Shown piece by piece: positions 2,919-32,276 of a stretch of 38,516 nucleotides of DNA. The stretch is from positions 1 through 38,516 of the forward strand of contig JALVRC010000083.1 of NCBI GenBank assembly GCA_027025255.1, given 5' to 3'. Source of the stretch: a candidate division WOR-3 bacterium (GTDB lineage Bacteria > Hydrothermota > Tepidihabitantia > B3-TA06 > JALVRC01). A program made the translations under genes and the position numbers. The notes beneath the pieces are model-generated. The model was given only the letters and a program-made list of their open reading frames with translations. It made no database searches and was not told the DNA's origin. Position 1 is the first letter of the stretch; every line of letters begins with the position of its first letter.

Positions 2919-2946
2919 TTGACATTACTAATAATATGTTTATAAT
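2919..2946 (+). promoter_or_regulatory. Sigma-70 consensus promoter (TTGACA-16 nt-TATAAT) for the exbB locus
   Basis: TTGACA at 2919-2924, 16-nt spacer, TATAAT at 2941-2946. AGGAGG at 2958-2963 precedes the ATG at 2970. Confidence 0.6.
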
Positions 2947-2969
2947 AAAAATAAAATAGGAGGAAATAT

Positions 2970-3590
2970 ATGATAGAACTCTTTGTAAAAGGCGGAGATA
3001 TGATGTGGGGTTTGCTTGCTATAGCAATCCTTGCACTTGTATTTATTATTGAAAGAGCAATCACATTAATTATTAAGGCACGTCTTAATCCTATGACATT
3101 TGTAAACGATTTAAAGGCAACAATTGATGCGGACGGTATTGATGGAGGATTGAAACTCTGCAATGAGACACCTCAACCTGTTGCGAAAATCCTTGCCGCT
3201 GGCCTTGAGAAGGTTTCCTTAGGAAAAGAAGTTGTTGAGGAGAATATCGCAGCGAAAGCTTCTGTAGAGCTTTCATTCTTAGACAGAGGTATGATCTGGA
3301 TAGCTATGAGTTCATCATTAGCTCCGATATTAGGATTTTTAGGTACAGTAACAGGTATGATTAGAGCATTTGAAGGTATTGCTAAGGCTGGTGAAGTGGA
3401 GCCTACAGTCGTTGCTGGTGGTATATCTGAGGCTTTAATCACTACAGCTACAGGTCTTCTTATTGCTGCTCCAGTTGTTTTCTTCCATACCCTTTATTCA
3501 GCTATTATTGATAGATATTCAAGGGATATGGAACAGGCTTCTTCTCTCCTTGTGGATTATTTATTAGAGAAGGGTCTTATTAAAGGATAG
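2970..3590 (+). CDS. exbB: MotA/TolQ/ExbB proton-channel protein
   Basis: Three-TM topology with the conserved C-terminal half ...LGFLGTVTGMIRAFEGIA...GGISEALITTATGLLIAAPVVFF typical of ExbB/TolQ. It is followed by exbD genes and tonB. Confidence 0.9.
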   Translation: MIELFVKGGDMMWGLLAIAILALVFIIERAITLIIKARLNPMTFVNDLKATIDADGIDGGLKLCNETPQPVAKILAAGLEKVSLGKEVVEENIAAKASVELSFLDRGMIWIAMSSSLAPILGFLGTVTGMIRAFEGIAKAGEVEPTVVAGGISEALITTATGLLIAAPVVFFHTLYSAIIDRYSRDMEQASSLLVDYLLEKGLIKG

Positions 3591-3592
3591 AT

Positions 3593-4012
3593 ATGCTTAC
3601 TTTTAGAAAAAAGAAAAAATCTTCTCCGGACATTCCTACCGCTTCAATGGCTGATATTGCTTTCCTTTTAATCGTTTTCTTTATGACAGCTACAATCTTC
3701 TCAAGAGAAAAGGGACTAAAAATGCTTTTGCCAGAAAAGGGTGAACAGAAGAAAATAAGGAAAGAAAATATTATGGAGATTCTTGTAAACCCTTATGGAG
3801 ACGTATTAATTGAAGATAGAAAGATGAAGATTGAACAGGTTAGAGATAAAGTAGAGAAAGCAATTGCAGACAACGAATCTCTGTCTATTGCCTTAAAGGT
3901 ATCTAAGAATGCTCCTTATAGAGTCATGATTGATGTCTTAGATGAGTTGAAACTTTCCCATGCTCAAAGAATAAGTCTTGTTCCTATTGAGGAAGTAGGA
4001 GGTGGGGAATGA
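3593..4012 (+). CDS. exbD: ExbD/TolR biopolymer transport protein (paralog 1)
   Basis: N-terminal PDIPTASMADIAFLLIVFFM signature and single TM, about 140 aa. Starts 2 nt after exbB. Confidence 0.9.
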   Translation: MLTFRKKKKSSPDIPTASMADIAFLLIVFFMTATIFSREKGLKMLLPEKGEQKKIRKENIMEILVNPYGDVLIEDRKMKIEQVRDKVEKAIADNESLSIALKVSKNAPYRVMIDVLDELKLSHAQRISLVPIEEVGGGE

Positions 4013-4416
4013 AAATAGCGAGAAGAAGTAGGTTTAAAGTAGAAATACCTACTGCATCTACCTCGGACATAGCATTTCTTCTAATCCTATTTTTTATGGT
4101 TTCAACTGTTTTTAGAACAGAGCAAGGTATACATATCAATCTTCCAAAGGCTAAATCCACTGAGCGTATCAGGTTAAGAAGAAATACAGTTAATGTCTGG
4201 GTAGATAATGACGGATTTATAACTGTCCAGGATAAAAGGATTAGTTTAGCGCAGCTTGGTTATTTTTTGCAAAATCAACTTGCTGCAAATCCTGATTTAA
4301 TTGTGCTTTTACGGGCAGATAAAGAGGCGAAATACGGTGTAGTTAATAAGATTGTTGAGAAAATGAAGGCAGTAAAGGCATTAAGGCTTGTCTTTGCTAC
4401 TGATTTTGAAGAGTAA
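4009..4416 (+). CDS. exbD: ExbD/TolR biopolymer transport protein (paralog 2)
   Basis: EIPTASTSDIAFLLILFFMV signature. ATGA 4-nt start/stop overlap with the preceding exbD. Confidence 0.9.
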   Translation: MKIARRSRFKVEIPTASTSDIAFLLILFFMVSTVFRTEQGIHINLPKAKSTERIRLRRNTVNVWVDNDGFITVQDKRISLAQLGYFLQNQLAANPDLIVLLRADKEAKYGVVNKIVEKMKAVKALRLVFATDFEE

Positions 4417-4427
4417 GGAGGTGTGAG

Positions 4428-5048
4428 ATGCAGTATGTAATTAAGGATATAAAGAACGAATACGGCATAAATTTGAGAATAGCTACTGTTATTGCATTAC
4501 TGATTATAATTCTTATTTTTGTTTTAAGTCCTAATAAGATTCAGGTACAGGAAATAAAACCTCATAAACAGACAGAGATTATTTCAGAAGATTTACCTCC
4601 TGAACTTGAACAAATAGCACAGCCTCCTCCTGAAGAAAAGGTTGCTGTTCCTGTAGCTGCTGAGAATGAAGAAGAAGCAGAGGCGGCAACAATGGCAGAA
4701 ACAGAATTTGCAGAAATATATCAAAAACCTGAAGAAAGTGTTGAGGTTCCTATTGTCCCTTACTTTAAGGTTGAGGTAAAACCCAAATTAAAGTATAAAC
4801 CATCTGCGAAATATCCTGATATTGCAAAAGAAGCAGGAGTAGAGGGTAAAGTTATTGTAAATGTGCTTGTTGAAACCGATGGGCATGTGAGCGAAGCAAA
4901 GGTGGTTAAATCGAGTGGTGATAGGAATTTAGATGCAGCCGCACTTGAGGCGGCAAGAAAAGCAACCTTTACGCCAGCAAAACAGAGGGATAAATTTGTT
5001 CGTGTTTGGGTTGCAATCCCGTTTGATTTTGTTTTAGAAGAGGAATAA
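4428..5048 (+). CDS. tonB: TonB family energy transducer
   Basis: N-terminal TM anchor, Pro/Glu-rich linker (PPELEQIAQPPPEEKVAVP...) and C-terminal TonB domain (YPDIAKEAGVEGKVIVNVLVETDGHVSEAKVVKSSGDRNLDAAALEAARKATFTPA). Confidence 0.85.
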   Translation: MQYVIKDIKNEYGINLRIATVIALLIIILIFVLSPNKIQVQEIKPHKQTEIISEDLPPELEQIAQPPPEEKVAVPVAAENEEEAEAATMAETEFAEIYQKPEESVEVPIVPYFKVEVKPKLKYKPSAKYPDIAKEAGVEGKVIVNVLVETDGHVSEAKVVKSSGDRNLDAAALEAARKATFTPAKQRDKFVRVWVAIPFDFVLEEE

Positions 5049-5062
5049 ATTAAGGAGGTAAG

Positions 5063-8000
5063 ATGAGAATAAACGTAAGAGCTTTTCTCTTTTTATTCTT
5101 AATCCCAGTTTTTATTTTTGCTGGTATTACGGGTAAAATAGCAGGAAGAGTGATAGATGCTTCTACTGGAGAGCCTCTACCTATGGTTAATGTTATTGTT
5201 GTAGGTTCGGAGATGGGAGCAGCAACAGGAATGGATGGTAGATACTATATTATTAATGTTCCTGTTGGTACATATACTTTGGAAGCTTCCATGGTGGGTT
5301 ATCAGACTGTAAGAATAAGCAATGTTAAAGTTGTTCAGGATATGACAACCCACATTAATTTTAAGCTTTCTCCAGAAGCTATTAAAACCAAAGTAGTAAA
5401 GGTAACAGCAAAGCGTTCTATGGTGCAGAAGGATGTTACTGCATCCATGTCCAGGATTAGTAAGAGAGACATAGAACGTAGGGCTGTAAGTGATTTTACG
5501 GATATAGTTGCCCAGCAGGCAGGAACTGTTGAAACAAAGGGAAGAGCCTCTTCCGGGCTTCATATCAGAGGTGGCCGTTCCAATGAGGTTATGTATGTTG
5601 TTGATGGCGTAAATGTCAACGATCCTGTTTATGGAACAAGTGGTATTCAGCTTGATAACGCTGCTATAGCAGAGATGCTTGTTGTAAGTGGTGGTTTCAA
5701 CGCTGAGTATGGTAATGCTATGTCCGGTATAGTTAACATTGTTACCAAAGAGGGAGGGAAAAGACTCTCCGGCTCTATTTACTATGACACTGACGAGCCA
5801 ATGCGATTGGGAGAAGTACTTTATAGAAATTTTATAGATACAACATACGAGCATCTTTATGGCTTTGGGCACGATAATATAAGTCTGACACTCGGTGGTC
5901 CCTTGTTTACCAGGATGCTTACATTTTTTGTATCAGGTAATATACTTGAGCATTTTGACAGATTGCCCCATGCTGAGTCGCACAGAAAGAGTGGCACTGG
6001 TAAGCTTGCATTTAAGCCATTTAGAGGATTTAAGCTTACTGTAAGCGCTAATTATTCTCAGTCCTGGTGGATAAGCTATGATCATTATCGTTCACTCGGT
6101 ACATGGTGGCAGGATTGGCCAATGAGTATAAGGGATAATTATCAATTAAATATGCAAATAAGGCATCAGATATTGCATTCAACATTTTATTCAGTAAATG
6201 TAGGTACGTTTAGTACGCATTTTCATAGGGCAGGAATGAGAGGAAAGGATTACAAGGACTGGAAAGAATTCGGAAGATTTATTCTTACCTGGCCAGGAGT
6301 AGCAAGGGATTCTTCCTGGTGGGATCAGGAAAACAGAACCTGGTCTGTCCCTCAGGAAGTACTTGATAGATACCATCTTGATACACTTCATCAGGATTCT
6401 GCTGCCTGGTTCTGGTTCTATGAGTATATGGCTGATAATGGGAATGGTTACGGAGAAATGACAGACGAGGGATGGAAATGGACAGGAAAGGATAAACTTA
6501 CCAAACTAAAACATCAAAGAGACGCATTGAATGCACGCTACTATGATGTTAACGAATGGGTCCTTGATGAACAGAATAAGAGACTTATATATCATGAGTT
6601 TGACCTGGAAAAGTATCTATCAGATGTTGATAAGTATAAAAGAGGAGAATTGGGAAAGGATAGTATAGAGTCAAGTGGTGATATGTACTATATACGTTAC
6701 AATTCAGATAGGTTTAGAAGGTTTGGCTATAATTTCTATCCTATCTGGCATGATAGACAGACAACAAAGTATTTTGTTTCATTTTCAATCACTTCTCAGG
6801 TGAACAAATTTAACCAAATGAAAACGGGAATAGACATAAACTATCATGATCTTACATTGAAAAATGTTGCATTTATTAATGAAAACCCCTATTCTGATAG
6901 TTATCATAAAACTCCTATTCTTGCTGCCGGATTCATTCAGGATAAGATTGAGTATGAGGATTTGACACTTAATCCAGGGATAAGGATTGATTATCTTGAT
7001 CCAAGGTCTGACTTTTATCTAAGGCTTGATAGCCTTGAGGCAGGTATGGCTCCTGCAAGCCCAAAGATTCAGATTTCACCGAGGTTTGGTATATCATTTT
7101 CTGTATCTGAGAAGTCTGTAATGTATGCCTCTTATGGCCATTTCTTCCAGCCAGTGGAGTTTGCAGAGATGTACCAGAATCTGCAGGCAGACGTTACAAC
7201 AGGTTATCCTCTTATTGGTAATCCTGATTTGCCTCCTAAAAAGACCATTGCTTATGAGATTGGATACAGACAGGCAATAACTGAAGATATTGCAACTGAA
7301 ATTGTTGCTTACTATAAGGATGTAACAAACCTTTTGGGGACGAGAAATGTAAATACACTTTACAGAACCCCGGAGGGTAAGTATGCCCTTGCCACATACA
7401 CAGTGTATAAACTTCAGGATTATGCTGTTATCAAAGGGGCTGATTTCAGTATAACAAAGAGATTTTCTCCATTCTTATCCGGTAATATAACCTATTCATA
7501 TCTGGATGCAAAGGGTACTGGTTCTTATGGAACTGAATTTTACTTTGTATACAGGACTTCAGGAGTTCCTCTTCCAAAGAAGGAGTATCCTCTTGATTTT
7601 GATATAACACATACTGTGAAGGGTAATGTTAATTTCTATCTTCCCGAGGGTATGCCTGTAAAGATTTTAAGCAATATCAATACCAATGTTACCTTTTCAA
7701 TCGCTTCTGGAGCTCCGTATACCCCGACAGATAGTAAGGGTAGACGTTTAACAGTTGGCTCAAAGCGTATGCCTCCGAGCTTTAATATGGATATGAGGGT
7801 TGAGAAGGCAATGAAAATAGGATTCTTAAATCTTTCTCTGTATACAGATATCAGGAATGTATTTAATGTAAGAAACTGGAATACAGTTTACTCCAATACT
7901 GGTCTTCCCAATGATAATGGGGGAGCACCCAAGCCTGACCCAAGTGCTTATTCAAGTTATGCATACTATGGATTTGATTCCTGGTACGACTACTGGAAGG

Positions 8001-8092
8001 CAGACTATGACAACTGGAAGAGGAAAATGGACAATCCTTATGTATTTTCCGATCCAAGAACAATCCGTGTTGGATTGAAAGTCAGATTTTAG
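5063..8092 (+). CDS. TonB-dependent outer-membrane receptor with N-terminal carboxypeptidase-regulatory-like domain (SusC/RagA-like architecture)
   Basis: Signal peptide, then a CarboxypepD_reg-like segment (GKIAGRVIDASTGEPLPMVNVIVVGS...GRYYIINVPVGTYTLEASMVGYQ). Plug motifs follow (GLHIRGGRSNEVMYVVDGVNVNDP, VVSGGFNAEYGNAMSGIVNIVTK), then a long beta-barrel ending in an aromatic residue (...RVGLKVRF). Confidence 0.9.
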   Translation: MRINVRAFLFLFLIPVFIFAGITGKIAGRVIDASTGEPLPMVNVIVVGSEMGAATGMDGRYYIINVPVGTYTLEASMVGYQTVRISNVKVVQDMTTHINFKLSPEAIKTKVVKVTAKRSMVQKDVTASMSRISKRDIERRAVSDFTDIVAQQAGTVETKGRASSGLHIRGGRSNEVMYVVDGVNVNDPVYGTSGIQLDNAAIAEMLVVSGGFNAEYGNAMSGIVNIVTKEGGKRLSGSIYYDTDEPMRLGEVLYRNFIDTTYEHLYGFGHDNISLTLGGPLFTRMLTFFVSGNILEHFDRLPHAESHRKSGTGKLAFKPFRGFKLTVSANYSQSWWISYDHYRSLGTWWQDWPMSIRDNYQLNMQIRHQILHSTFYSVNVGTFSTHFHRAGMRGKDYKDWKEFGRFILTWPGVARDSSWWDQENRTWSVPQEVLDRYHLDTLHQDSAAWFWFYEYMADNGNGYGEMTDEGWKWTGKDKLTKLKHQRDALNARYYDVNEWVLDEQNKRLIYHEFDLEKYLSDVDKYKRGELGKDSIESSGDMYYIRYNSDRFRRFGYNFYPIWHDRQTTKYFVSFSITSQVNKFNQMKTGIDINYHDLTLKNVAFINENPYSDSYHKTPILAAGFIQDKIEYEDLTLNPGIRIDYLDPRSDFYLRLDSLEAGMAPASPKIQISPRFGISFSVSEKSVMYASYGHFFQPVEFAEMYQNLQADVTTGYPLIGNPDLPPKKTIAYEIGYRQAITEDIATEIVAYYKDVTNLLGTRNVNTLYRTPEGKYALATYTVYKLQDYAVIKGADFSITKRFSPFLSGNITYSYLDAKGTGSYGTEFYFVYRTSGVPLPKKEYPLDFDITHTVKGNVNFYLPEGMPVKILSNINTNVTFSIASGAPYTPTDSKGRRLTVGSKRMPPSFNMDMRVEKAMKIGFLNLSLYTDIRNVFNVRNWNTVYSNTGLPNDNGGAPKPDPSAYSSYAYYGFDSWYDYWKADYDNWKRKMDNPYVFSDPRTIRVGLKVRF

Positions 8093-8101
8093 GAGGTAGG
8101 A

Positions 8102-11100
8102 ATGAAACGTATAAGTGTAATTTTACTATTTATTGTTAGCCTTGCTTTTGCAAGACTAAACTGGCAGCCGCGTCTGAATCTTGATAAAAGACATAAGAAA
8201 TGTAGAGCTCAGACAGCTGTTTCTGATAATCCGGCTGTCTTCTGGTGGTCAGCCTGGACACAGAATAGCTATATGAACAGTATAGAGGTTAGTAATACAT
8301 GCCAGGGTGGTGTAATAACTCGTCCTACAAACTGGGATCATTATGAGGGACAGTGGCCATTTGGTTTTAGTACGGGTAATGGCAACCTTGAGTTTCCCGC
8401 TTACAGTGGTCAGATGTATAACTGGGCATGGGGAGCATGGTTCGGAGCTCTCTATCCCAAGGTAAATGATAAAGGAGAGACAACCTGGGTTAAGAATGTT
8501 TCCAAATGTGCATATTATACTGATTTAGGCGCTATGAGCGTTCCTGAGATGAGTGATGCAGGTGATAAGCTGCATGATATTAGCTCTCTGGGTTTGTACT
8601 TTTCTACCCAGCAAATACCTGAAAAGGTGATGGGTACTAAGGGCTATTATCTGTTTGCACCTTCAAGGAGTAAACCGGAATCATATCAGACACGCTGGCC
8701 CTTCGCAGATACTATGATTAATAAGAGAAGGCCCAAGCATGCCTGGGTATATCCTGATTCAGGTGATATCATAGCTTACGAAGAGACCTTTGCAGTTGCA
8801 GGTGACTACATTCCTGAGGATAATGCTGCATTAATATGGTTAAGAACAAACTCAACACCTTACGATTATCAGGCCCTGGGTATCAGGGTTGAGCAGAGAA
8901 CGTATATATGGAACTATGCGTACAACAATCAGTATATGTACATTAACTACAAGGTTCGGAATATGAACAATTTCCCACTTAAGAATTTCTATGTGGGATT
9001 CTTTATGGATAATGATATTGGCGATGCAACTGACGATATGATTGGCTACCTTGAGGATTTGAACCTTGGCTATTCCTATGATTCTGATGGAAAGGAGATG
9101 GGATGGATAACACCTGCTGGATTTATAGGCTGTGTAATGGTTGAAACACCGGCAGATTCAGGGTTAACTGGTTTTAATACATGGGTAAGATCCACGGAGC
9201 CAGGCGATATTATGATTGATGATGATGGCACGGATTCACTTAAATACGACGCACTTGCAGAAAGAGAGTTTAAAACATACGAGCTTCCAAGAGATGTAAG
9301 ACAGCTGTCTGCAAGCGGACCTCTGCCTGAGATAAAACCAGGAGAGGAAGTTGGGTTTACCGTAGCAATCATTGTTGCTTTTTCTCTTGATGAATTGATA
9401 GAAAAGGCAAAAATGGCAATAGATCAGTTTAACACAGGATATCTTGGGTTTGCTCCACCGCCCTCACCAAATGTTACAGTTAAGCCAGGAGATGGAGTAG
9501 TATATGTTACATGGGACAACAGTCCTGAAGACTATGTCGATTTAATGGCTGATGAGCAGACATTTGAAGGCTACAGAGTATATAAGAGCAGAACTGGATA
9601 CCTTGATGACTGGGAGCTTGTTGCTGACTACGATAGGAAGAATACGGCAACTCCTGATACAGTTATGATTAAACCTGTTAATGCAACCTCTAATGCTGAG
9701 ATAGTCTTTACAGGATACGATGCTGGTGCAGAGAAGGTTTCAGCGCAGTACACAGTTAATTTTTCTCTTTTAAGGGTTGATACCACTGTGATTGATTCTA
9801 CTACCACAGAATACGACACTGTCTTCGGATACGATATATACAACATAGATAAAAAACAGCTTTATTCATACAGTACCAACGAAGCATACTCATTTACATT
9901 CAGGGTTAAATCCCATGAATCTGGGCAGATTTATAAAACATTCCCCGGATACATACCAGGAGATACACTTAAGTTTGACGGCATGAATTTTGTTATCAAG
10001 AATGGTGTACCTGATCCTGAGCTGCCAATTGACACTACACCGAATGCAGGGGATGCATACATGATAACTTCATTCAAGTCAGAAGCAATTGGTCCTGAAA
10101 CAGGCATTAGATACTTTTATGCTGATTCCAATGTTGTTAACGGATACAAGTATTACTATTCAGTGGTTTCATATTCAAAGCCCCTTCCAAAGTATGGTGT
10201 TGATATACTTGAAGGTGGTAAAAGCGGTAAAAAGTACTGGGCTATTCCTATGAAATCTCCAGTAAACTATGCTGATGTTTCAATTGATTACGAAAGAATA
10301 TCAGGAAAGGGTGATATGCGATTCTTCAGCACTATTGTTAATCCTATGGAGGTTAAGGATAATGAGTACACAGTAACATTTAACAGTGATGAGCATGGAA
10401 ACATTGTCTCATGGAATATTCTGGAAGGTTCAACGCCAAAGGCAGAGAGTATTCCGTATCTTGAGGGTGACGGATACTCTCCGGTTATTGATGGTGTTTC
10501 TTTTAAAGCCTATATTACTTCCAAGAATAAACTTGATATTAATGATACGATTATTGACGATGGATATACTCACTGGGCTGACAGCACTATTGATGCACCA
10601 ATACTCTTTCATGAGGCTGATAGCCTTGAAGCCACTGATTTTGCTATAATCTTTACACAGGATGGTTATGTTGATAACAGGCACAAGAAGTACACATTTA
10701 AGATAATAGATATAACTACAGGTGAGATGATGCACTGCTACTTTATAAAAAATAATCAAAAGATTATAAAGGGAGATACAATAACGAGAGACTCTTCACA
10801 GCTTCTATGGTTTAAGGATAAAATATACGTTTATCATGGTGGTGAATACAACAGAAATCAGCAGTTCTGGTTAGAGGTTCAGGATTTGTACAATGAGAGA
10901 ACTAAATTCCCTGAAGAAGGTGATACTCTGTATGTAAAGACTTTAAAAAAGGTATCTTCAGACACTAAGATTAGAATAACCACAACAGGATTTGGAACCT
11001 TAAAGGATACGTTTAGTCTGGATTCAATAAGAGTAGTTCCTAATCCGTATTATGTTAGAGCCCCATGGGATGAGAGTAAATGGGTTCAAAAGGTCTGGTT

Positions 11101-11308
11101 CCAGGGATTACCTGATAAATGTAAGATAAGGATATTCAATGCTGCAGGATTGCAGGTCAGGGTACTCTATCATAATGAGCCTACAGGTGCTGCTTACTGG
11201 GATTTATATACAGAAGAAGGTCAACGTGCTACTAGTGGTCTGTACTTCTACCTTGTTGAAATGGAAAATGGCAAAAAGAAAACTGGTAAGTTTTCAATAA
11301 TTTACTAA
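8102..11308 (+). CDS. Large secreted protein of unknown function with an FN3-like module and a T9SS C-terminal sorting domain
   Basis: Signal peptide (LFIVSLAFA). Acidic cluster FFMDNDIGDATDDMIGY. FN3-like start PPPSPNVTVKPGDGVVYVTWDN...FEGYRVYKS and a distant FN3-like end GYKYYYSVVSYS. C-terminal VVPNPYY...GLYFYLVEMENGKKKTGKFSIIY is typical of T9SS/FlgD-Ig-type CTDs. No catalytic motif recognised. Confidence 0.7.
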   Translation: MKRISVILLFIVSLAFARLNWQPRLNLDKRHKKCRAQTAVSDNPAVFWWSAWTQNSYMNSIEVSNTCQGGVITRPTNWDHYEGQWPFGFSTGNGNLEFPAYSGQMYNWAWGAWFGALYPKVNDKGETTWVKNVSKCAYYTDLGAMSVPEMSDAGDKLHDISSLGLYFSTQQIPEKVMGTKGYYLFAPSRSKPESYQTRWPFADTMINKRRPKHAWVYPDSGDIIAYEETFAVAGDYIPEDNAALIWLRTNSTPYDYQALGIRVEQRTYIWNYAYNNQYMYINYKVRNMNNFPLKNFYVGFFMDNDIGDATDDMIGYLEDLNLGYSYDSDGKEMGWITPAGFIGCVMVETPADSGLTGFNTWVRSTEPGDIMIDDDGTDSLKYDALAEREFKTYELPRDVRQLSASGPLPEIKPGEEVGFTVAIIVAFSLDELIEKAKMAIDQFNTGYLGFAPPPSPNVTVKPGDGVVYVTWDNSPEDYVDLMADEQTFEGYRVYKSRTGYLDDWELVADYDRKNTATPDTVMIKPVNATSNAEIVFTGYDAGAEKVSAQYTVNFSLLRVDTTVIDSTTTEYDTVFGYDIYNIDKKQLYSYSTNEAYSFTFRVKSHESGQIYKTFPGYIPGDTLKFDGMNFVIKNGVPDPELPIDTTPNAGDAYMITSFKSEAIGPETGIRYFYADSNVVNGYKYYYSVVSYSKPLPKYGVDILEGGKSGKKYWAIPMKSPVNYADVSIDYERISGKGDMRFFSTIVNPMEVKDNEYTVTFNSDEHGNIVSWNILEGSTPKAESIPYLEGDGYSPVIDGVSFKAYITSKNKLDINDTIIDDGYTHWADSTIDAPILFHEADSLEATDFAIIFTQDGYVDNRHKKYTFKIIDITTGEMMHCYFIKNNQKIIKGDTITRDSSQLLWFKDKIYVYHGGEYNRNQQFWLEVQDLYNERTKFPEEGDTLYVKTLKKVSSDTKIRITTTGFGTLKDTFSLDSIRVVPNPYYVRAPWDESKWVQKVWFQGLPDKCKIRIFNAAGLQVRVLYHNEPTGAAYWDLYTEEGQRATSGLYFYLVEMENGKKKTGKFSIIY

Positions 11309-11318
11309 GAGGTGTGAG

Positions 11319-12377
11319 ATGAAAAGAAAAGGAATTTTAATAATTGGATTTGTTTTAGCTTTAGCCTTCCCTCTCCATGCAAGATTAGGAGGGAGTGGAA
11401 TAGTCTCTCTTGGTATGGGAGATGGTGTTAGAGCTATTGGTATGGGTGGAGCATTTACTGCTTATGGAGAAGGTGTTGAGGCAGGATTCTGGAACCCTGC
11501 TGGTATTGCAGGAGTAAAGCAGGTTTCCATTTTAACTGCTCATGCAATGAGCTATGTTGGAACATCTGTTGAGAATATTTCATTTGCATTACCTATGAAC
11601 AATAGCGCTCTGGGAATGGATATTCATGCGTTTCTGTCAGGCCCAATTGAGATAACCACTGTTAATAGACAGGAAGGGATAAATCAATACTACAGTGCGA
11701 ATGATTTTGTTATAGGCTTTATGTACGGTAAACAGATGACCAATAAATTCTGGGCTGGTACCAATGTAAAAGCTGTTTATTCTACAATAGACCAGGTTAG
11801 TGCTCTTGGTTTTGCAATTGATATTGGCGGTAAATACTATACAGGTATAAAGGGATTGAATTTTGGCTTTGCCATTCAGAACTTTGGTCCTGATGAGAGA
11901 TATACAGGACAGGCTATAGAGTGGTATACTTCCAAGGATACTCTTCAGGATGAGGATGTTCAGATTGAGGCTGTTACGCAGGCTTTTCCTCTTCCTTTAA
12001 GTTTCCAGGGAGGTTTAAGCTTTACTGCTATTAAGAACGATAATTTTGAGCTAAATCTTGCCTTAGATTATATACATCCAATAGATCAGTTTACCAAAAA
12101 ATCCTCTCTTAGCGATTCAACAGGTAGTATAAACTGGAATGGTAATGATATGGGAAAACGTGATGAGTATTACTATTTTCTTAAGGATGTGAATGCTGGC
12201 ATAGAAATGAAATTTATGAATAGGTTCTTTTTAAGGCTGGGGCATACAGAGAAGAACGACAGATTGTTTACAGCCGGATTAGGTATAGATATGGGTAAGT
12301 ACAGAATAGACTATAGTTTTGAATATCATAAGTATTTGAACGGTATTCATAGATTAGGAATAGTGCTGGGGCAATAG
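11319..12377 (+). CDS. PorV/PorQ-family (UPF0164-like) outer-membrane beta-barrel
   Basis: Signal peptide, then the family hallmark GMGDGVRAIGMGGAFTAYGEGVEAGFWNPAGIAG. Alternating beta-strand pattern, about 350 aa. Confidence 0.7.
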   Translation: MKRKGILIIGFVLALAFPLHARLGGSGIVSLGMGDGVRAIGMGGAFTAYGEGVEAGFWNPAGIAGVKQVSILTAHAMSYVGTSVENISFALPMNNSALGMDIHAFLSGPIEITTVNRQEGINQYYSANDFVIGFMYGKQMTNKFWAGTNVKAVYSTIDQVSALGFAIDIGGKYYTGIKGLNFGFAIQNFGPDERYTGQAIEWYTSKDTLQDEDVQIEAVTQAFPLPLSFQGGLSFTAIKNDNFELNLALDYIHPIDQFTKKSSLSDSTGSINWNGNDMGKRDEYYYFLKDVNAGIEMKFMNRFFLRLGHTEKNDRLFTAGLGIDMGKYRIDYSFEYHKYLNGIHRLGIVLGQ

Positions 12378-12387
12378 TCCCAGCACT
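12362..12387 (+). other. Perfect 9-bp stem / 8-nt loop hairpin spanning the stop codon of the PorV-like gene (possible attenuator or RNA-processing/stabilising structure)
   Basis: AGTGCTGGG (12362-12370), loop gcaatagt, CCCAGCACT (12379-12387). No U-tract follows, so it is not a classic intrinsic terminator. Confidence 0.4.
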
Positions 12388-12449
12388 ACTATATAAAAGG
12401 AGGTGAAATATACAAAACAAAACAAATAACCAAAAAGGAGGTTTTTAAA

Positions 12450-14195
12450 ATGAAGAGATTAATTCTTGCAATAATAGGGATTGTTGCTATTGCTGGTGCA
12501 GCTAATATTTACGCACCGATAACAATACTTTCAAATAACTCCTATAATCTTACCAACATTGATTTAAACCCATATAATGGAGTTATAAACTATGACCCAA
12601 TGGCTGGTGTAGGTACACTTATTGATAGTGCCGGGAACCAATACACAATAATTGCTGCAACTACAAATACCATTTACTATGGTAATGATGCTGTGGTTAT
12701 TATTAACAGAAGATTTGATCCTACAGGTGCCTTAAATTATCATACACTTTACAACGGAACCTGGACACATGATCAGATATATTCTCAGGATTTTGGTCTT
12801 GCTCGTTACCCTTCAGCTTTTGCTGGTTCAGACGGACCTTATGCAGGATTCCCTGTATTAGAGGGAGCATGGCCAAATGTTAGCTGGGGTTATGCAGCAG
12901 GTCAGTATGGCAGTGGTGGTTATGGCTCAGGAACATGGGACTTTGCACTTCTTCTGGGGGATGAGCAGGATAAGGATGCAATTCATGTTTTGCCATTTGA
13001 AACAGATGACGGCAATATTCTTTTCCTTACATGGGGAAAAGATGCTAATGGTGACAATGTTAATAAGATCTTTGCCATTCTTCATACAAAGGATTTATCA
13101 TCAGTAGTATCAGAAACACAGTTAAGGAACGGCTCTGATCCGTATGCAGCATCAATGGATTACAATGGTGGAACAGCTGCTATGCAGATACTTGATAATA
13201 ACGAAGCCGGATACATAACAAGTACTGATAATGGTGCCACCTGGAGCGATATGACTGCTGACAGAGGAGATACTATTGTTGGATTTATAAGAGATGCAGA
13301 TGTTTATGGTGGTTTTTCTACAATCTATGGGGCAAATATTGATTTTGCCCTTAATAGCAGTGCTGAGTATTACTGTGCATTCAATATTGAGGATACTACT
13401 GCTTTCCATACTCCTACGAAACGCTGGCCACCAGCAGGAGCGGTTTATTTTTATAATCCAAAGATAAGTGCTACAAGGAACTATCGTATTGATATTCCTA
13501 AACCATACGATATTTACAATCCTGATACAGTTTATACAGCAAATTTTGTTTATTATACTCAGATAGCGATTGGCGAATCAAAAGGGAGAACAATTGCAGC
13601 TATAGTATGGATGCAGGCAGATACCTCTATAGGAACCTTTGAGCCTACGAAATGGGATATTTATATGAGGTATACTAAAAATGCCGACTCTCAGGATTCA
13701 ACTAACTGGAGTGATATAATCAATATTACAAACACAAATGATGTTTCTGAGTGTTATTTACATGTTGCTCCAAGGCTTAAAATAGATGGTGATTCAGCCA
13801 CAGTATTCATTGCCTGGGCAGAGGACATGGGTAGTAATGGAGCAAAGGATGTTCATTTCTTAACAGATGCAGAAGATCAGGCAGTCCCTATCGCAGTGAA
13901 GTATATGAGCTATACGTTTGATATAAAAGGAGATACCTCAGGAGTAGTAGAAGAGGGGTCTGTTGATATTGTTGCCAATTCAAGTCCCAATACAATTGCA
14001 TTCTCTTTAAGCAGTACCTCCAATGTTGATATTTCCATAGCTGATGTTTCTGGTAGAACAGTAAAAACTATAAGCAGGAGTTTCAGTGTTGGTTCTCATA
14101 CAGTTGATATGAACAGTCTTTCAAACGGCGTATACTTCTATAATATCAAGGTGAATGGCAAGAGCTATAACGGAAGATTGATTGTTGTTCACTAA
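12450..14195 (+). CDS. BNR/Asp-box repeat (sialidase-fold-like) secreted protein with T9SS C-terminal domain
   Basis: Signal peptide. Canonical Asp-box S-x-D-x-G-x-T-W (TSTDNGATWSD) plus a degenerate copy (DSTNWSD). CTD ...ISIADVSGRTVKTI...LSNGVYFYNIKVNGKSYNGRLIVVH. Confidence 0.7.
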   Translation: MKRLILAIIGIVAIAGAANIYAPITILSNNSYNLTNIDLNPYNGVINYDPMAGVGTLIDSAGNQYTIIAATTNTIYYGNDAVVIINRRFDPTGALNYHTLYNGTWTHDQIYSQDFGLARYPSAFAGSDGPYAGFPVLEGAWPNVSWGYAAGQYGSGGYGSGTWDFALLLGDEQDKDAIHVLPFETDDGNILFLTWGKDANGDNVNKIFAILHTKDLSSVVSETQLRNGSDPYAASMDYNGGTAAMQILDNNEAGYITSTDNGATWSDMTADRGDTIVGFIRDADVYGGFSTIYGANIDFALNSSAEYYCAFNIEDTTAFHTPTKRWPPAGAVYFYNPKISATRNYRIDIPKPYDIYNPDTVYTANFVYYTQIAIGESKGRTIAAIVWMQADTSIGTFEPTKWDIYMRYTKNADSQDSTNWSDIINITNTNDVSECYLHVAPRLKIDGDSATVFIAWAEDMGSNGAKDVHFLTDAEDQAVPIAVKYMSYTFDIKGDTSGVVEEGSVDIVANSSPNTIAFSLSSTSNVDISIADVSGRTVKTISRSFSVGSHTVDMNSLSNGVYFYNIKVNGKSYNGRLIVVH

Positions 14196-14211
14196 TGCAC
14201 GCGATTAATAA

Positions 14212-15042
14212 ATGATTAAACGAATTATATTGGGAGGAGCTTTGCTCCTCCCAATACTTTTTACTTTCTGCTCTTCTGAGAGTGACTGGCAGCCAAACGA
14301 GAAAGACAGCAGTGATGTATTTACGCTTATTGATTCAACGCTAAAGAATTATGCCCCACCTGTTTCCAACTTACCGGACAATATTTTATGGAACAGTGGT
14401 GATTCAGTTTTTATTTCATTTATAGAGCAGTCATTTGAGTTTTTTGATACATTGAAACTAATTTCCTGGGGGACGGATACAACAGCAACTTTAACTGTTT
14501 ATGATTCATTGAGGATGAATGTTGTTTTCTATATTGATTCTCTCGTCTATAAAGATAGCAGTGTGTATAAACCGGATACATTTGGATATACTGTTTTCGG
14601 AGAGGGGTGGAGCAAGATGCTTTTTAAGAAATATGATAATGAATGGAGGCTTGAGAAGGTTTCAGCTGGAAGCGACATGGGTTTTCCTGAGTTTGCCAAT
14701 ACGCCTGTGCTTTATAGTTTAAGAATAAATGAAAGAGATGTGTATGTGTATGAAATTGATAGCTTGAATAACAAAAAAAATTACATCTTGCATAATCTTT
14801 ATCCTGTTGATAGTATATTTAAGGCTGAAAATGTTTTAATAACAAACGTGAATTTTTCATATCCAGAGGATCTCTATTTTATTGTCGGGGTAAACAATAA
14901 GAGTGAATTTTTTAAAGATTCAGTCTCATTCACTCTTGAGAGGGGTGTTAACAAGTTGTTTATAGAATCCTTTAGTACGGGTCTTATAAATTCTTTGGTG
15001 ATGAGACCGTCCATTTTCTGGGTATATATTCTGAGTAATTAA
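14212..15042 (+). CDS. Hypothetical lipoprotein
   Basis: MIKRIILGGALLLPILFTFC|SSE fits a lipoprotein signal/lipobox. No other motif recognised. No SD upstream. Confidence 0.55.
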   Translation: MIKRIILGGALLLPILFTFCSSESDWQPNEKDSSDVFTLIDSTLKNYAPPVSNLPDNILWNSGDSVFISFIEQSFEFFDTLKLISWGTDTTATLTVYDSLRMNVVFYIDSLVYKDSSVYKPDTFGYTVFGEGWSKMLFKKYDNEWRLEKVSAGSDMGFPEFANTPVLYSLRINERDVYVYEIDSLNNKKNYILHNLYPVDSIFKAENVLITNVNFSYPEDLYFIVGVNNKSEFFKDSVSFTLERGVNKLFIESFSTGLINSLVMRPSIFWVYILSN

Positions 15043-15127
15043 TGGGGGTTTTATATGGGGTTATTTTTACTTTTATCTTATTGAGAGTAGTTTTTTATAG
15101 ATAAGGATTGACAGAGAAGGAGGGAAT

Positions 15128-17638
15128 ATGATGATAATATTTATTTTCTCAATAGCTTTGAATTTACGCATAGAAGACTATTATAGTATAGATAGCATTA
15201 AGTCTTTTGATCGTATGTACTTATTGAGTGGGAAATCTATTAATATTGTACTGCCAAAAGGAGAAAGTATTGATAATGTTAGATTTGATTATACACTTGA
15301 TACTATTAAAGGCATAAAAATAGAGAGTGGAGTTATTAAGGCTACGGATAACCATATAGTAGGCAAAGGTCTCCACGCAGAGGAGTTTGTACCTTTTAGC
15401 CTGATAAGAGAGGGGCTTTTAAGGGGTTTTAGTATTGCTACATTCAAATACTTGCCGTTTTTTTATATAGAAAAAGATTCAACACTTGTTTATGTATCAC
15501 ATTTACATGTTGATATTGAGACAAAACATAATAGACATTTTGCAAATGAGACAAAAAGGTTTAAGTATGGGTATTTAAAAGACTATGTAAAATCAATTGT
15601 TATTAATAAGAAGGATGTGGATAGATTTTATTCATTTAAATACAACTACATATATGAAGAGAAGAATCTTTTGATTATTGCACCAGGTTCTTTTAAAAAA
15701 ATGCTTGGGTTTTATAAGGATTATAAGGAGAGTATGGGATTTAAGGTGGAAATTATTTCCATGGATAGTATTTATGATAATTATGAAGGCAAGGATAAAC
15801 CTGCAAAGATAAGATATTTTCTTTATAGAAATGTAGAGAGCATAAATTACGTGCTTTTAATAGGAAGTCTTGACAGCATACCCATGAGGTTATGTGTGCC
15901 TTTTAATAATGAGTTATACAGTCCTTACAACAATGCTAATATTTCACCTATTCCTACTGATTTATATTATGCAGAGTTGAGCTTTCCGGATGAGGTTTCA
16001 TGGGATTCTGACGGGGATGGCAGATACGGAGAAGCTGGTGGTTTTTCTCAAGTATCAGGAGATGATAAGATGGATTTCTTCCCTGAGATATCCGTAGGAA
16101 GAGTGCCTTTTAATGATTCAATTACTGTACGCAGTTTTCTTGAACGGTTGATAGCATTTGAGCAAAATACAGATGATGGGTATAAAAAACGAGCTGAACT
16201 TGTCGGATTGATTGGTAACTTTAAAAATGAGAATTATCTGCCGAAAACAGATGGTGCCAGTTTAATGGAACGCATAATTAATACCCGCATAGTCTCAAGA
16301 ACGTCAGCTACTACATTATACGAAAAAGAAGGGCTTGATGCATCGTTGTACAATTGTACAGTACCTGTCAACCATGACAATATTATTTTTCAATGGCAGA
16401 AAAAGGGGCTTTTTAATATATGGGGACATGGAAATAGTAAAAAGACTTATAGAAAAATATGGAAGAAGGATAATGGAGATGGTAAACCTCAGTATGAAGA
16501 GATAGCCTATAAGTATGCTCTGGTGAGTAATGATGATACTTCTATTGATAGTCAATTTCCTGCCTTTGCTTTTTTATGTAGTTGTCTTTCCGGGGATATT
16601 GAGGAGGAAGATAATCTTACCTTTAAACTTTTGAAATCTTCTGCAGCGGGGATTGTATCAGCTACACGTTATTCCTGGTATGTTCCTGCATGGGCTAATG
16701 AAAAACAAGGAGGTGATGCTTCTCTTGATTACTTTTTCTTGAAGTTTTTACTCAAGGATACGACTGTTTCTCATGGAAGAGCTGGTAAATCATTGAATTT
16801 AGCAAGAAGTACTGTTTATCAATACGATAATGATATTTATTCAGTTTGTAATCTCTATGCGTTTAATCTTTTTTCTGATCCATCCATGATATATTATGGT
16901 GAGCGCAATCCTGATACAGTAAGGGAATTGATTTTTGATGAAGGAGCTCTGGGTAAAAATATCTTTCTTGATTATAATATTAGATATGCAGTGCAGTTTA
17001 CCCCTCCTAAGTATCCATTCAGGATTAATAGCATTTCTTTTTATATATCAGATACTATTACACTTTATCCTGATAATTTTTACTACTATATTTCTTATGA
17101 GTGGAACGGAAAGCCGTACTTTCCTGTTTATTCAGGTTTAGGAAAGGTAAGTAAAGTAGGCGGATGGAACACATATGTGCCTGATACGACAATAATTGTT
17201 AAAAAAGGGGATTTTTTTGTTGCCATTCAAAGGGTTGGTACACCGAGAAAACTTTTTCTTGGTGCTGATACTGCTGTCCCTGCGCATAAGAGAAGCTGGC
17301 AGTATAAAAATAATTATTGGCAGAAGATAAGTGAAGATATAGATTATATGATAAGGGTTACTGGTTTTGCAGGAGAGTATAAGAGTATTGAAGAAGATGC
17401 CAATTTTCTTTCTAAGGTGAATATAGAACACGGCAGAATAAACTTTGTTTTAAAACACTATTTAACACTTGATATAGCTCTTTATTCTGTTTGCGGAAGA
17501 AAGGTTTTTAGTCTACATCGTACCTATAGTAAAGGTCCCCACACAGTAAAGCTTTCCTCACTCAAGTCTGGTGTTTATTTTCTACTCCTTAAATCAGATG
17601 ATTTCTTATATACTGAGAAATTTATCTATTTTCAATAA
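15128..17638 (+). CDS. Peptidase family C25 (gingipain-like cysteine peptidase) with T9SS C-terminal domain
   Basis: C25 pattern NLLIIAPGSFKKML..YKESMGFKVEIISMDSIY....KIRYFLY....NYVLLIGSLDSIPMR. Candidate catalytic His (NIWGHGNSK) and Cys (FAFLCSCLSGD). CTD ...LKSGVYFLLLKSDDFLYTEKFIYFQ. GAAGGAGGG lies before the ATG. Confidence 0.8.
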   Translation: MMIIFIFSIALNLRIEDYYSIDSIKSFDRMYLLSGKSINIVLPKGESIDNVRFDYTLDTIKGIKIESGVIKATDNHIVGKGLHAEEFVPFSLIREGLLRGFSIATFKYLPFFYIEKDSTLVYVSHLHVDIETKHNRHFANETKRFKYGYLKDYVKSIVINKKDVDRFYSFKYNYIYEEKNLLIIAPGSFKKMLGFYKDYKESMGFKVEIISMDSIYDNYEGKDKPAKIRYFLYRNVESINYVLLIGSLDSIPMRLCVPFNNELYSPYNNANISPIPTDLYYAELSFPDEVSWDSDGDGRYGEAGGFSQVSGDDKMDFFPEISVGRVPFNDSITVRSFLERLIAFEQNTDDGYKKRAELVGLIGNFKNENYLPKTDGASLMERIINTRIVSRTSATTLYEKEGLDASLYNCTVPVNHDNIIFQWQKKGLFNIWGHGNSKKTYRKIWKKDNGDGKPQYEEIAYKYALVSNDDTSIDSQFPAFAFLCSCLSGDIEEEDNLTFKLLKSSAAGIVSATRYSWYVPAWANEKQGGDASLDYFFLKFLLKDTTVSHGRAGKSLNLARSTVYQYDNDIYSVCNLYAFNLFSDPSMIYYGERNPDTVRELIFDEGALGKNIFLDYNIRYAVQFTPPKYPFRINSISFYISDTITLYPDNFYYYISYEWNGKPYFPVYSGLGKVSKVGGWNTYVPDTTIIVKKGDFFVAIQRVGTPRKLFLGADTAVPAHKRSWQYKNNYWQKISEDIDYMIRVTGFAGEYKSIEEDANFLSKVNIEHGRINFVLKHYLTLDIALYSVCGRKVFSLHRTYSKGPHTVKLSSLKSGVYFLLLKSDDFLYTEKFIYFQ

Positions 17639-22864: not shown

Positions 22865-24169
22865 TTAAAAGTTTTTTTTATAAAGCCCGAACTTTTTCAT
22901 CCTGTATCTAAGTGCAAATCTTCCTATACCAAGAATCTTTGCAGCTTTAGATTGATTCCACCCTGTTTCATTTAAAACTTTGATTATCAGTTCTTTTTCA
23001 GATATCTCTCTTTCTCTTGTTAGTTTGTTGAATGAAATATCGTCAAGTAGGTCAAATATTGTTTCAATGCTTACTATATCCTCATCAGCAATGATCATTA
23101 CTCTTTCTACAAGATTTCTTAATTCTCTGATGTTCCCGGGCCAAGAGTATTTCATAAGTATTTCAAGTGCCTCTTTGGAGAATATTTTTTTTGCTATATT
23201 ATGTTCTTTAGAATACAGGGATACAAAATATTTCACAAGGTCAGGTATATCTTCGGGGTGTTTTCTTAAGGGAGGCGTTTTTATATCAAATACATTAATT
23301 CTGTAGTAAAGATCTATCCTAAAAAGGCCTTTATCAATAAGTTTCTTAAGGTTTTTATTTGTTGCAAAAATCATTCTAACATCAACTTTTCTTGGTTTAT
23401 TGTCTCCGAGACGCTCTATTGTTTTATTCTCAAGAACCCTTAAGAGCTTTGATTGAAGATTATATTGCATATCTCCAATTTCGTCGAGAAAAAGCGTTCC
23501 TCTGTGAGCCATTTCAAATTTACCTTTTTTATCTTTAATTGCTCCTGTAAAAGCTCCTTTACTAAAGCCAAAAAGCTCACTTTCTAAAAGCTCTGAGGGA
23601 ATTGCAGAACAGTTGATTGCTACAAAAGGCTCCCTTGCTCTCGGAGAATATTTGTGGATATTGTAAGCTACAAGTTCTTTCCCTGTCCCTGTCTCTCCCA
23701 TTATTAAAACGGATGTGGAGACCTTCGCAATCTTTCTAATCCTTTCAAAGAGTTTTTTCATGGGTTGTGATTTGCCTATCATTTCAATAGGTAGACGGTG
23801 TTTGGCTTTATCTTTTAGTTTAAGGGCTTTTTCAATCATGGATTTTAATGTAGTTATAGAAAACGGTTTTTCAATATATTCAAATGCACCTTCTTTTATT
23901 GCTTGAGTGGCTTCATTTAATGAACCAAAGGCTGTGATTAAGATTATAGGAATTCTTATGTTTTTTTTCTTTAGTTTTTTTAAAAGTTCTGTTCCTGACA
24001 TCTCTGGCATTTTAATGTCTGATATGATTACGTCCCCATGCCCTTCTATAATATATTTAAATGCATTTGTAGGAGAAGAAAAGGTAGCAATTTTATATTC
24101 ATTTCCAAAGGTACTGGAAAGAATTCTTAGAATTTTTTCTTCATCATCTATTACAATGATTTCTTTCAT
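22865..24169 (-). CDS. Sigma-54-dependent response regulator (NtrC family: receiver + AAA+ + Fis-type HTH)
   Basis: Receiver (VIDDEE..., phospho-acceptor context VIISDIKMPEMSG). Walker A GETGTGKE, ESELFG, and the sigma-54 contact loop GAFTGA. C-terminal HTH NQSKAAKILGIGRFALRYRMKKFGL. Confidence 0.92.
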   Translation of the reverse strand: MKEIIVIDDEEKILRILSSTFGNEYKIATFSSPTNAFKYIIEGHGDVIISDIKMPEMSGTELLKKLKKKNIRIPIILITAFGSLNEATQAIKEGAFEYIEKPFSITTLKSMIEKALKLKDKAKHRLPIEMIGKSQPMKKLFERIRKIAKVSTSVLIMGETGTGKELVAYNIHKYSPRAREPFVAINCSAIPSELLESELFGFSKGAFTGAIKDKKGKFEMAHRGTLFLDEIGDMQYNLQSKLLRVLENKTIERLGDNKPRKVDVRMIFATNKNLKKLIDKGLFRIDLYYRINVFDIKTPPLRKHPEDIPDLVKYFVSLYSKEHNIAKKIFSKEALEILMKYSWPGNIRELRNLVERVMIIADEDIVSIETIFDLLDDISFNKLTREREISEKELIIKVLNETGWNQSKAAKILGIGRFALRYRMKKFGLYKKNF

Positions 24170-32248: not shown

Positions 32249-32276
32249 TTGACAATAAACAAATATTATATATAAT
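32249..32276 (+). promoter_or_regulatory. Sigma-70 consensus promoter (TTGACA-16 nt-TATAAT) for the FGE-domain gene
   Basis: TTGACA at 32249-32254, 16-nt spacer, TATAAT at 32271-32276. Confidence 0.6.

Follow-up and report, generated by a model that had tools for sequence, protein, structure and literature searches.

The 38,516-nucleotide (nt) window analyzed here, contig JALVRC010000083.1 of a candidate division WOR-3 bacterium, contains a functional unit of three genes that is kept in order with short gaps. These genes encode a TonB-dependent transporter (TBDT), a 1068-amino-acid (aa) protein that we call GIANT, and an outer-membrane barrel resembling PorQ. The module is probably an undescribed, SusD-free way of nutrient capture. 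An original prediction from this window alone had expected a triad of receptor, giant type IX secretion system (T9SS) cargo and PorV-like barrel to be conserved elsewhere, and this expectation is borne out. A profile of 22 GIANT homologs was searched against one genome per GTDB species, which gave at least 499 confirmed loci, and the best 80 (labelled L) were kept for synteny analysis by tblastn with the window proteins and by clustering of their open reading frames (ORFs). The TBDT, GIANT and barrel genes lie on one strand in a fixed order, and the full triad is present in 47 of the 50 loci with both flanks. The TBDT gene lies 5′ of the GIANT homolog in 55 of the 58 loci with enough upstream flank, and the barrel gene lies 3′ of it in 56 of the 60 loci with enough downstream flank, with median gaps of 25 nt (TBDT-GIANT) and 48 nt (GIANT-barrel). 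Because these loci had been selected through GIANT, we also ran a reverse test in which TBDT homologs (31-48% identity) were picked by TBDT similarity alone. All five loci with complete flanks encode a TBDT, then a 920-1080-aa protein, then a PorV/UPF0164-type barrel of ~330 aa; a sixth locus ends early. The middle proteins have no Pfam match, and the N-domain and C-terminal domain (CTD) of GIANT are present in them. The reverse-test loci include Cloacimonadota and Ignavibacteriae.

GIANT homologs in the initial search came only from uncultured lineages of the Fibrobacterota-Chlorobiota-Bacteroidota (FCB) type (WOR-3, TA06, Fermentibacteria and Marinimicrobia), and every named homolog is annotated as hypothetical. 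A search from a distant member, encoded in a Bacteroidota metagenome-assembled genome (MAG), found more than 907 relatives, including Calab_3298 of the cultured Caldithrix abyssi DSM 13497, whose locus reads TBDT, Calab_3298 and PorV-family barrel, followed by an M20 peptidase. Against 1.84 billion cluster representatives (50% identity), the GIANT profile matched 1757 at E ≤ 1e-30 and 5907 at E ≤ 1e-10. Triads are found in WOR-3/Stahlbacteria, TA06, Gemmatimonadota, Zixibacteria, Calditrichota, Fermentibacteria, Neomarinimicrobiota (Marinimicrobia/Fidelibacterota) and Cloacimonadota, and further in Eisenbacteria, KSB1, Ignavibacteria/Melioribacteraceae, Balneolaceae, Bacteroidota MAGs, Poribacteria and Mcinerneyibacteriota. 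The triad order is thus kept in more than 10 phyla, mostly uncultured. Some genomes or contigs carry several divergent triads (L001, L051 and L060; L019 and L040 come from one MAG), which fits diversified uptake specificities. In six loci (L003, L004, L007, L008, L017 and L082) a lipoprotein of ~590 aa with an NHL beta-propeller, in some cases with a faint PKD match, is encoded between GIANT and the barrel; this is a trait of the closest WOR-3-type relatives, and the window has no such gene. In Marinimicrobia (L026, L028-L030, L033 and L038) the triad lies directly 3′ of tig-clpP-clpX; two genes come after it, the first for a conserved T9SS protein of ~700-880 aa and the second for one of ~1000 aa, which has an HELFH motif in L028, the one member read.

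The CTD of GIANT ties the protein to its neighboring barrel. The final ~100 residues of the aligned GIANT proteins were turned into a hidden Markov model (HMM), which was run against the 788 ORFs of the 80 loci together with the window proteins. The scores are bimodal: 60-154 bits are reached only by proteins encoded directly 5′ of a PorQ-like barrel, whereas ordinary type-A T9SS cargo of the same loci scores at most 27 bits, and the two other T9SS cargo proteins encoded in the same string of genes, a 581-aa protein and a C25 peptidase, give no score. GIANT itself has no match to the type-A CTD models (TIGR04183/PF18962). Nor does it belong with type-B cargo and PorP/SprF, since its C-terminus, which gives the only family match in the protein, stays below threshold for CHU_C (PF13585; 23.5 bits vs a cutoff of 27) and TIGR03519 is matched weakly by 2 of 59 triad barrels. 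The CTD is the best-conserved segment of GIANT (mean identity 0.51, no gaps), which is unusual for a signal that is merely cleaved off. Paralogs sharing only the N-terminal domain of GIANT occur in L036, L041, L043 and L046, indicating that the N-domain is a separable module. Those in L041 and L043 (ORFs of ~900 aa, among other T9SS cargo) carry an ordinary type-A CTD and have neither a TBDT nor a barrel adjacent; PF18962 is present in the N-domain paralogs P0066, P0072 and P0081. Conversely, the second triads of L051 and L060 have an unrelated middle protein with the same CTD type, and each of the tandem triads in L001 has its own barrel. As judged from these profile scores and gene contexts, the GIANT CTD constitutes a separate subclass that occurs only beside such barrels, in agreement with the earlier proposal of a PorV paralog dedicated to the giant cargo.

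These gene contexts also bear on whether GIANT could be a barrel-anchored adhesin or S-layer-like protein, with the TBDT as a co-inherited neighbor without joint function. Its build of multiple beta-sandwiches and an FN3-like module is typical of adhesins, and adhesin systems built from a cargo and a barrel are known, SprB-SprF among them (PMC10202324). We nevertheless give this explanation very little credence, and an adhesin with an unrelated neighbor is unlikely given the synteny: order, strand and short gaps are kept across the phyla and also in the loci chosen by their TBDT, which would be unexpected without functional coupling, and when the N-domain carries an ordinary CTD both neighbors are lost together.

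The barrels of the triads all belong to the PorV/PorQ family (NF033709 in 59 of 59), and their best E-values are stronger to the PorQ model than to the PorV model. The window barrel remains below the equivalog cutoffs for PorQ (NF033711, 73.3 vs 220), PorV (NF033710, 48.7 vs 250) and PorV2 (NF052325, 58 vs 325), so that by these scores it appears closest to PorQ without being a PorQ, PorV or PorV2 ortholog. The barrel family profile matches Flavobacterium johnsoniae PorV (6h3i_F, 9.4e-31) and then the FadL-family proteins TbuX and TodX; single-sequence searches of the PDB with the window barrel, the 581-aa cargo and the C25 peptidase gave no significant match. When the PDB was searched with the GIANT family profile, the sole match was the CTD of PorZ (5m11), a weak one (E = 0.058), and PorZ ranked second in the whole-chain Foldseek search with GIANT. 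In the published view (PMC10202324), PorZ binds PorQ through a CTD that it retains, and T9SS substrates may be shielded and anchored by cognate PorV-like barrels, among which PorP/SprF would serve type-B cargo. By analogy, the GIANT-barrel pair would fit as a third class of cognate CTD/PorV-like-barrel pairing.

The same resemblance raises the possibility that GIANT and its barrel are the counterpart of PorZ-PorQ outside Bacteroidia, a glycan- or lipopolysaccharide (LPS)-binding part of the attachment complex, with the TBDT linked for some other purpose such as assembly or regulation. The CTD matches no PDB sequence other than PorZ, PorQ gives the barrels their highest scores of all the specific equivalog models, the N-domain fold is typical of carbohydrate-binding supersandwiches while PorZ supplies A-LPS to PorU (PMC10202324), and T9SS cargo is enriched downstream of the triads, with a C25 peptidase in the window locus. 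We regard such an accessory role as unlikely. T9SS machinery is normally single-copy, yet a genome may have several divergent triads, and triads can lie in tandem; a near-obligate TBDT partner (55/58 loci, 5/5 in the reverse test) would be left without a role; and GIANT and PorZ share no fold beyond the CTD. The C25 protein was also considered as a PorU-type sortase and judged unlikely to be one on its score, far below the cutoff of the PorU2 model (28.3 vs 450); no canonical PorU model was among its NCBIfam/Pfam matches, and it is not syntenic.

GIANT has no NCBIfam match, and no curated Pfam or NCBIfam model exists for GIANT or its CTD. An AlphaFold2 model built with 54 homologs (predicted local distance difference test, pLDDT, 84.2; predicted TM-score, pTM, 0.74) is almost entirely beta. 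The N-domain modelled alone reached a pLDDT of 93.5 and a pTM of 0.92, and Foldseek related it to the supersandwich N-domains of the glycoside hydrolase (GH) families GH94, GH116 and GH92 and of dextran dextrinase, and also to aldose 1-epimerase and the P1 domain of YidC (query TM-scores 0.35-0.46). On the strength of these models, the N-domain is predicted to be a galactose-mutarotase-like supersandwich without a close solved relative or an attached catalytic domain. It has invariant acidic and aromatic residues, including an F-M-D-N-D-I-G motif, D303, D305, D311, D327, E332 and W335. Within the following FN3-like module lies a conserved FEGYRVY[RK] motif, which was used as a search pattern, and the segment between this module and the CTD consists of poorly conserved beta-sandwiches (identity ~0.2). 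A recognizable enzyme was considered for GIANT and rejected: fold searches with the whole chain and with the N-domain matched only supersandwich domains of glycoside hydrolases and phosphorylases, all non-catalytic, and no (alpha/alpha)6 or TIM catalytic domain. In some WOR-3 homologs of ~1190-1220 aa (P0008, P0010, P0013, P0023, P0024 and P0030) the divergent second half contains Baseplate_J (PF04865).

The absence of SusD noted in the original prediction was put to profile searches. None of the 10 proteins encoded in the string matches a SusD family (PF07980, PF12741, PF12771 or PF14322) at E ≤ 0.01, and at E ≤ 10 Pfam gave no SusD match in GIANT, in the 276-aa putative lipoprotein and 581-aa cargo of the same string, or in the products of an 893-aa ORF and a small TPR gene that lie beyond it. 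Nor does GIANT turn out to be a SusD-type protein under another name, since its almost wholly beta model would exclude the helical SusD-like fold.

The TBDT has a signal peptide, a CarboxypepD_reg N-terminal extension, a TonB-box-like motif, a plug and a large barrel (PF13715 1.8e-20; PF13620 4.7e-18; PF07715 4.1e-12; PF25183 9.9e-09, weak), and thus the N-terminal extension, plug with TonB box and barrel that define the Oar subclass (PMC6434023). The TonB-box-like motif V-x-V-T-A-x-R, at residues 112-118 between the extension and the plug, is kept in 37-40 of 44 triad sequences (V114 in 40/44, A116 in 37/44). Long-form triad TBDTs contain an insert of ~150 aa (residues ~391-540) rich in Trp, Tyr and charged residues, which is missing from those shorter than 930 aa and might form a docking domain outside the cell. 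The window TBDT has no match to TIGR04056 (SusC/RagA) at E ≤ 1e-3; weak matches in 31 of 44 triad TBDTs (best 4.1e-29) are similar to their matches with other generic TBDT families. The label "SusC-like architecture" given to it earlier therefore describes the domain order and does not extend to membership of the SusC/RagA family, and the missing SusD is not anomalous in itself. A single-sequence search of the PDB matched the N-terminal extension domain only. These results show an Oar-type TBDT clade dedicated to the module.

Directly upstream in the window lie exbB, two copies of exbD and tonB, with MotA_ExbB, ExbD and TonB_C all above their Pfam cutoffs. A TBDT with its own neighboring Ton system has a precedent in Oar of Myxococcus (PMC6434023). 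The receptor had been credited with a private Ton motor, and the Ton genes are indeed in the same string here; the exbB-exbD-exbD-tonB set, however, adjoins the triad in just 3 of the 80 loci, those of the closest relatives (L007, L011 and L017), and the control with upstream genes agrees (MotA_ExbB in 3/109 proteins, TonB_C in 4/109). We therefore rejected a private Ton motor as a defining trait of the module.

An Oar-type transporter also invites a reading in terms of export rather than import, in which the TBDT would be a TonB-energized secretion channel for GIANT or neighboring cargo and the barrel would receive and anchor the product. The architecture is that of Oar (PF13620 extension, plug and barrel, with the weak PF25183 match), exbB, exbD and tonB adjoin it here as they do oar, Oar and its Ton system are needed for secretion of PopC (PMC6434023), and secreted proteins are enriched beside triads. 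We find export quite improbable: a multidomain beta protein of 118 kDa, GIANT ends in a T9SS-type CTD and shares its loci with ordinary type-A cargo, which makes T9SS the simpler route; the Ton genes are adjacent in few loci; Oar is so far a single documented case; and the sequence is silent on the direction of transport. A bolder version, to which we attach very little weight, is that the triad is a self-contained export-and-display device independent of SprA/Sov, in which the TBDT translocates the ~1000-aa protein and the barrel anchors it. This would explain triads outside the classic T9SS phyla (Poribacteria and Mcinerneyibacteriota) and, if true, would be a new secretion route borrowing T9SS-type signals and shuttles.

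Genes next to the triads give some indication of what might be taken up. Among the first two genes 3′ of the barrel in 41 loci, 25 of 79 encode a Por_Secre_tail, as against 9 of 109 upstream genes (odds ratio 5.1, p = 8e-5). Most of the downstream enzymes that could be identified are peptidases (four S8, three M6, three M14, two C10 and one C11), with one GH94 and one GH31 enzyme also among them, and LacI-type regulators lie 5′ of the triad in three loci. An M6 T9SS peptidase is encoded directly 5′ of the triad in L083, the triad of L086 lies amid M20, S51 and M14 peptidases, and in the window a convergent S8 peptidase gene accompanies the C25 gene. Apart from GIANT, at least three window proteins have a Por_Secre_tail, and T9SS is reported for the FCB superphylum (PMC11205867); both points indirectly support GIANT as a T9SS substrate. 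Since T9SS peptidases from several unrelated families repeatedly adjoin the module, the substrate might, speculatively and by analogy, consist of protein fragments or peptides. The substrate-binding role proposed for GIANT, with secreted hydrolases feeding the receptor, is one we infer from this downstream enrichment of T9SS cargo, often peptidases.

Taken as an uptake module, the triad might work as follows. In the WOR-3 lineage the module would be transcribed together with exbB-exbD-exbD-tonB from a strong sigma-70 promoter. GIANT would cross the inner membrane via Sec and the outer membrane via T9SS, and its CTD would remain uncleaved and stay on the cognate barrel, as with PorZ/PorQ and type-B cargo/PorP-SprF. 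Anchoring would place the N-terminal supersandwich at or over the neighboring TBDT, where it would capture or present the substrate, which the TBDT would then import with energy from TonB-ExbBD. The locus would thus be a SusD-free analog of a Sus/Rag-type locus, with a T9SS cargo and an anchor barrel in place of the SusD lipoprotein. We read the direction as import because of the plug and the conserved TonB-box-like motif of the TBDT, and because the Ton genes share the string with it here. Partial mirror-tree correlations over 43 triads agree softly with contacts of the CTD on the barrel and of the N-domain on the TBDT (CTD-barrel given TBDT, 0.33; N-domain-barrel given TBDT, 0.02; N-domain-TBDT given barrel, 0.45). 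To this account, in which T9SS exports GIANT, the retained CTD docks on the barrel and GIANT works with the TBDT, we give about an even chance.

Several observations weigh against it. Surface location, CTD retention, GIANT-TBDT contact and transport direction are all predictions. The sequence likeness to the PorZ CTD is weak, and the mirror-tree correlations are dominated by shared phylogeny. A conserved N-domain with a variable middle region runs counter to simple substrate-specific binding, which would predict the reverse, and the supersandwich, matched here at modest TM-scores, is best known from carbohydrate-active enzymes rather than from peptide binders. The downstream enrichment has the upstream flank as its only control, peptidases are common among T9SS cargo anyway, and a few loci have LacI regulators or the GH94 and GH31 enzymes in place of peptidases.

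The uptake module recalls several known systems. As in SusC/SusD (RagA/RagB), a TBDT with a CarboxypepD_reg-type extension is encoded directly 5′ of a surface-exposed partner, secreted or surface hydrolases are nearby, and several divergent copies per genome are possible; RagAB imports peptides produced by T9SS gingipains. The partner in the triad, however, is an all-beta T9SS cargo of ~1000 aa and not an alpha-helical SusD lipoprotein, the TBDT is outside the SusC/RagA family, and the obligatory third gene encodes a PorQ-like barrel. In BtuB-BtuG and HmuR-HmuY, TBDTs have a non-SusD surface lipoprotein that is encoded beside them and hands over the ligand; BtuG and HmuY are lipid-anchored, whereas in the triad the anchor would be a separate barrel binding a T9SS CTD. 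With PorZ-PorQ and PorU-PorV the module has in common a T9SS protein that, in the published view (PMC10202324), keeps its CTD and is bound through it by a cognate PorV-family barrel, and the GIANT CTD is nearest that of PorZ as the barrel is nearest PorQ; it differs in that the barrel falls short of both the PorQ and the PorV equivalog cutoff, GIANT lacks the beta-propellers of PorZ, and the cargo gene adjoins the barrel gene in a pair that may be present in several copies and that a TBDT gene always accompanies. Type-B cargo with PorP/SprF (SprB-SprF) likewise pairs a dedicated CTD subclass with its own adjacent anchoring barrel, but the triad barrel is of the PorV/PorQ family, the GIANT CTD has its own motifs in addition to scoring too low for CHU_C, and the triad includes a TBDT. 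Oar of Myxococcus xanthus has a PF13620 extension, a plug with TonB box, a large barrel and adjacent exbB/exbD/tonB (PMC6434023), but it is without T9SS cargo or a PorV-like partner and is implicated in protein export. Within the incomplete set of literature searched, no description of a TBDT/CTD-cargo/PorV-like module was found, and the locus goes unmentioned in the genome paper of Caldithrix abyssi. TBDTs, T9SS cargo, PorV-family barrels, TBDTs with a surface partner and CTD cargo on a cognate barrel are all known, and what is new is their fixed combination.

In the window the triad is part of a tight plus-strand string (Table 1), in which every gene of the original prediction was found at its predicted position. 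The string consists of 10 ORFs (2970-17638) rather than the 11 counted earlier, with no gap large enough for another; the gaps between genes 1-10 are, in order, 2, -4, 11, 14, 9, 10, 72, 16 and 85 nt. The promoter at its head, described before as perfect, is an exact 12/12 match, and an AGGAGG ribosome-binding site lies between it and the exbB ATG. The exact TTGACA-N16-TATAAT pattern occurs twice in the window (0.11 expected), both times just 5′ of a plus-strand gene; the second instance, at 32249-32276, is 32 nt 5′ of a gene with PEGA and FGE-sulfatase domains (32308-33420). These two promoters suggest that the organism uses canonical sigma-70 promoters and not the Bacteroidota type. The idea that one promoter serves the whole string is less secure. 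A terminator-like hairpin after gene 8 (dG -24.2 kcal/mol, z -5.35; none of 200 shuffles as stable) starts 33 nt past the stop of the 581-aa gene and lies within the signal-peptide codons of the 276-aa ORF, where it encodes ILGGALLLPI, the hydrophobic core of the signal peptide. This stretch appears to act both as coding sequence and as a terminator or attenuator, and genes 9 and 10 may therefore form a separate or attenuated unit. The GC content is 0.37-0.41 from the Ton genes to the 581-aa gene (window 3000-14000) and 0.32-0.35 on either side; the low-GC stretch takes in the lipoprotein and C25 genes, which agrees with a break at the hairpin. An Rfam search of the window and of L007, L013, L019 and L028 gave no match that reached the gathering score, and hence no riboswitch or other RNA clue to the substrate.

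The last three genes of the string, for the 581-aa cargo, the lipoprotein and the C25 peptidase, were dropped from the core because none of them is syntenic in the other loci, where matches are confined to the CTD. Together with the Ton genes, which adjoin the triad in close relatives only, this argues against the string as a whole being one system, as had been supposed. The label of BNR/Asp-box protein given earlier to the 581-aa cargo depends on a single Asp-box, STDNGATW (PF02012 E = 0.17, 12.4 bits vs 27). The 276-aa ORF has no family match and no syntenic homolog, and the CTD of the C25 protein scores 27 with TIGR04183 (cutoff 23).

Beyond the string, the 893-aa ORF (17632-20313, minus strand) converges on the C25 gene with a 7-nt overlap of their ends and is followed on the same strand by the small TPR gene and an S8 subtilase gene. 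It has no Pfam match and has an HEYTH (HExxH) zinc-peptidase-like motif near its N-terminus. Farther along, phosphofructokinase, a class-II aldolase-like protein and fructose-1,6-bisphosphatase are encoded in one string at 24173-27710 (minus strand), which a sigma-54-dependent response regulator gene (22865-24169) adjoins.

Table 1. Features of the TBDT/GIANT/barrel locus in the window
Feature	Position	Strand	Basis or detail
Sigma-70-type promoter	2919..2946	+	TTGACA, 16 nt, TATAAT; 24 nt 5′ of exbB ATG
exbB (MotA/TolQ/ExbB proton channel)	2970..3590	+	PF01618, 7.7e-28, 97.2 bits
exbD copy 1	3593..4012	+	PF02472, 6.7e-24, 84.8 bits
exbD copy 2 (4-nt overlap with copy 1)	4009..4416	+	PF02472, 5e-25, 88.5 bits
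tonB (TonB C-terminal domain)	4428..5048	+	PF03544 2.5e-23, 82.7 bits; TIGR01352 78.4 vs cutoff 27.1
Triad gene 1, 1009-aa Oar-type TBDT	5063..8092	+	CarbopepD_reg_2 + Plug + OMP_b-brl_4
Triad gene 2, 1068-aa GIANT, signal peptide	8102..11308	+	No Pfam/NCBIfam family at threshold
GIANT N-domain, aa 36-452	8207..9457	+	Predicted galactose-mutarotase-like beta-supersandwich
GIANT FN3-like module, aa ~453-565, after PPPSP linker	9458..9796	+	Alignment consensus, model strand pattern
GIANT CTD, aa 968-1068	11003..11305	+	Distinct T9SS-type CTD subclass, PorZ-like
Triad gene 3, 352-aa PorV/PorQ-family (FadL-like) outer-membrane barrel	11319..12377	+	NF033709 154.9 vs cutoff 90
581-aa T9SS type-A cargo	12450..14195	+	PF18962 36.6 bits; TIGR04183 35 vs cutoff 23
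276-aa putative lipoprotein (MIKRIILGGALLLPILFTFC...)	14212..15042	+	Signal peptide then Cys
Terminator-like hairpin	14228..14256	+	Perfect 13-bp stem, then CTTTTTACTTT (T-run)
836-aa C25 (gingipain-family) peptidase, type-A T9SS CTD	15128..17638	+	PF01364 8e-30, 104.7 bits vs 23

TonB-dependent uptake in the FCB group is understood almost wholly via SusC/SusD, and type IX secretion almost wholly via Bacteroidota. The triad joins the two in a fixed genetic unit with thousands of members. If the uptake model holds, the GIANT-barrel pair would add a third class to the known cognate pairings of CTD and PorV-like barrel, and the module would be a SusD-independent nutrient-capture machine in groups that dominate deep-ocean and sediment turnover of protein and polymers. 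A marker set for annotation would then be available in the CTD subclass, the N-domain and the barrel clade, and the cultured Caldithrix abyssi makes the module directly testable.

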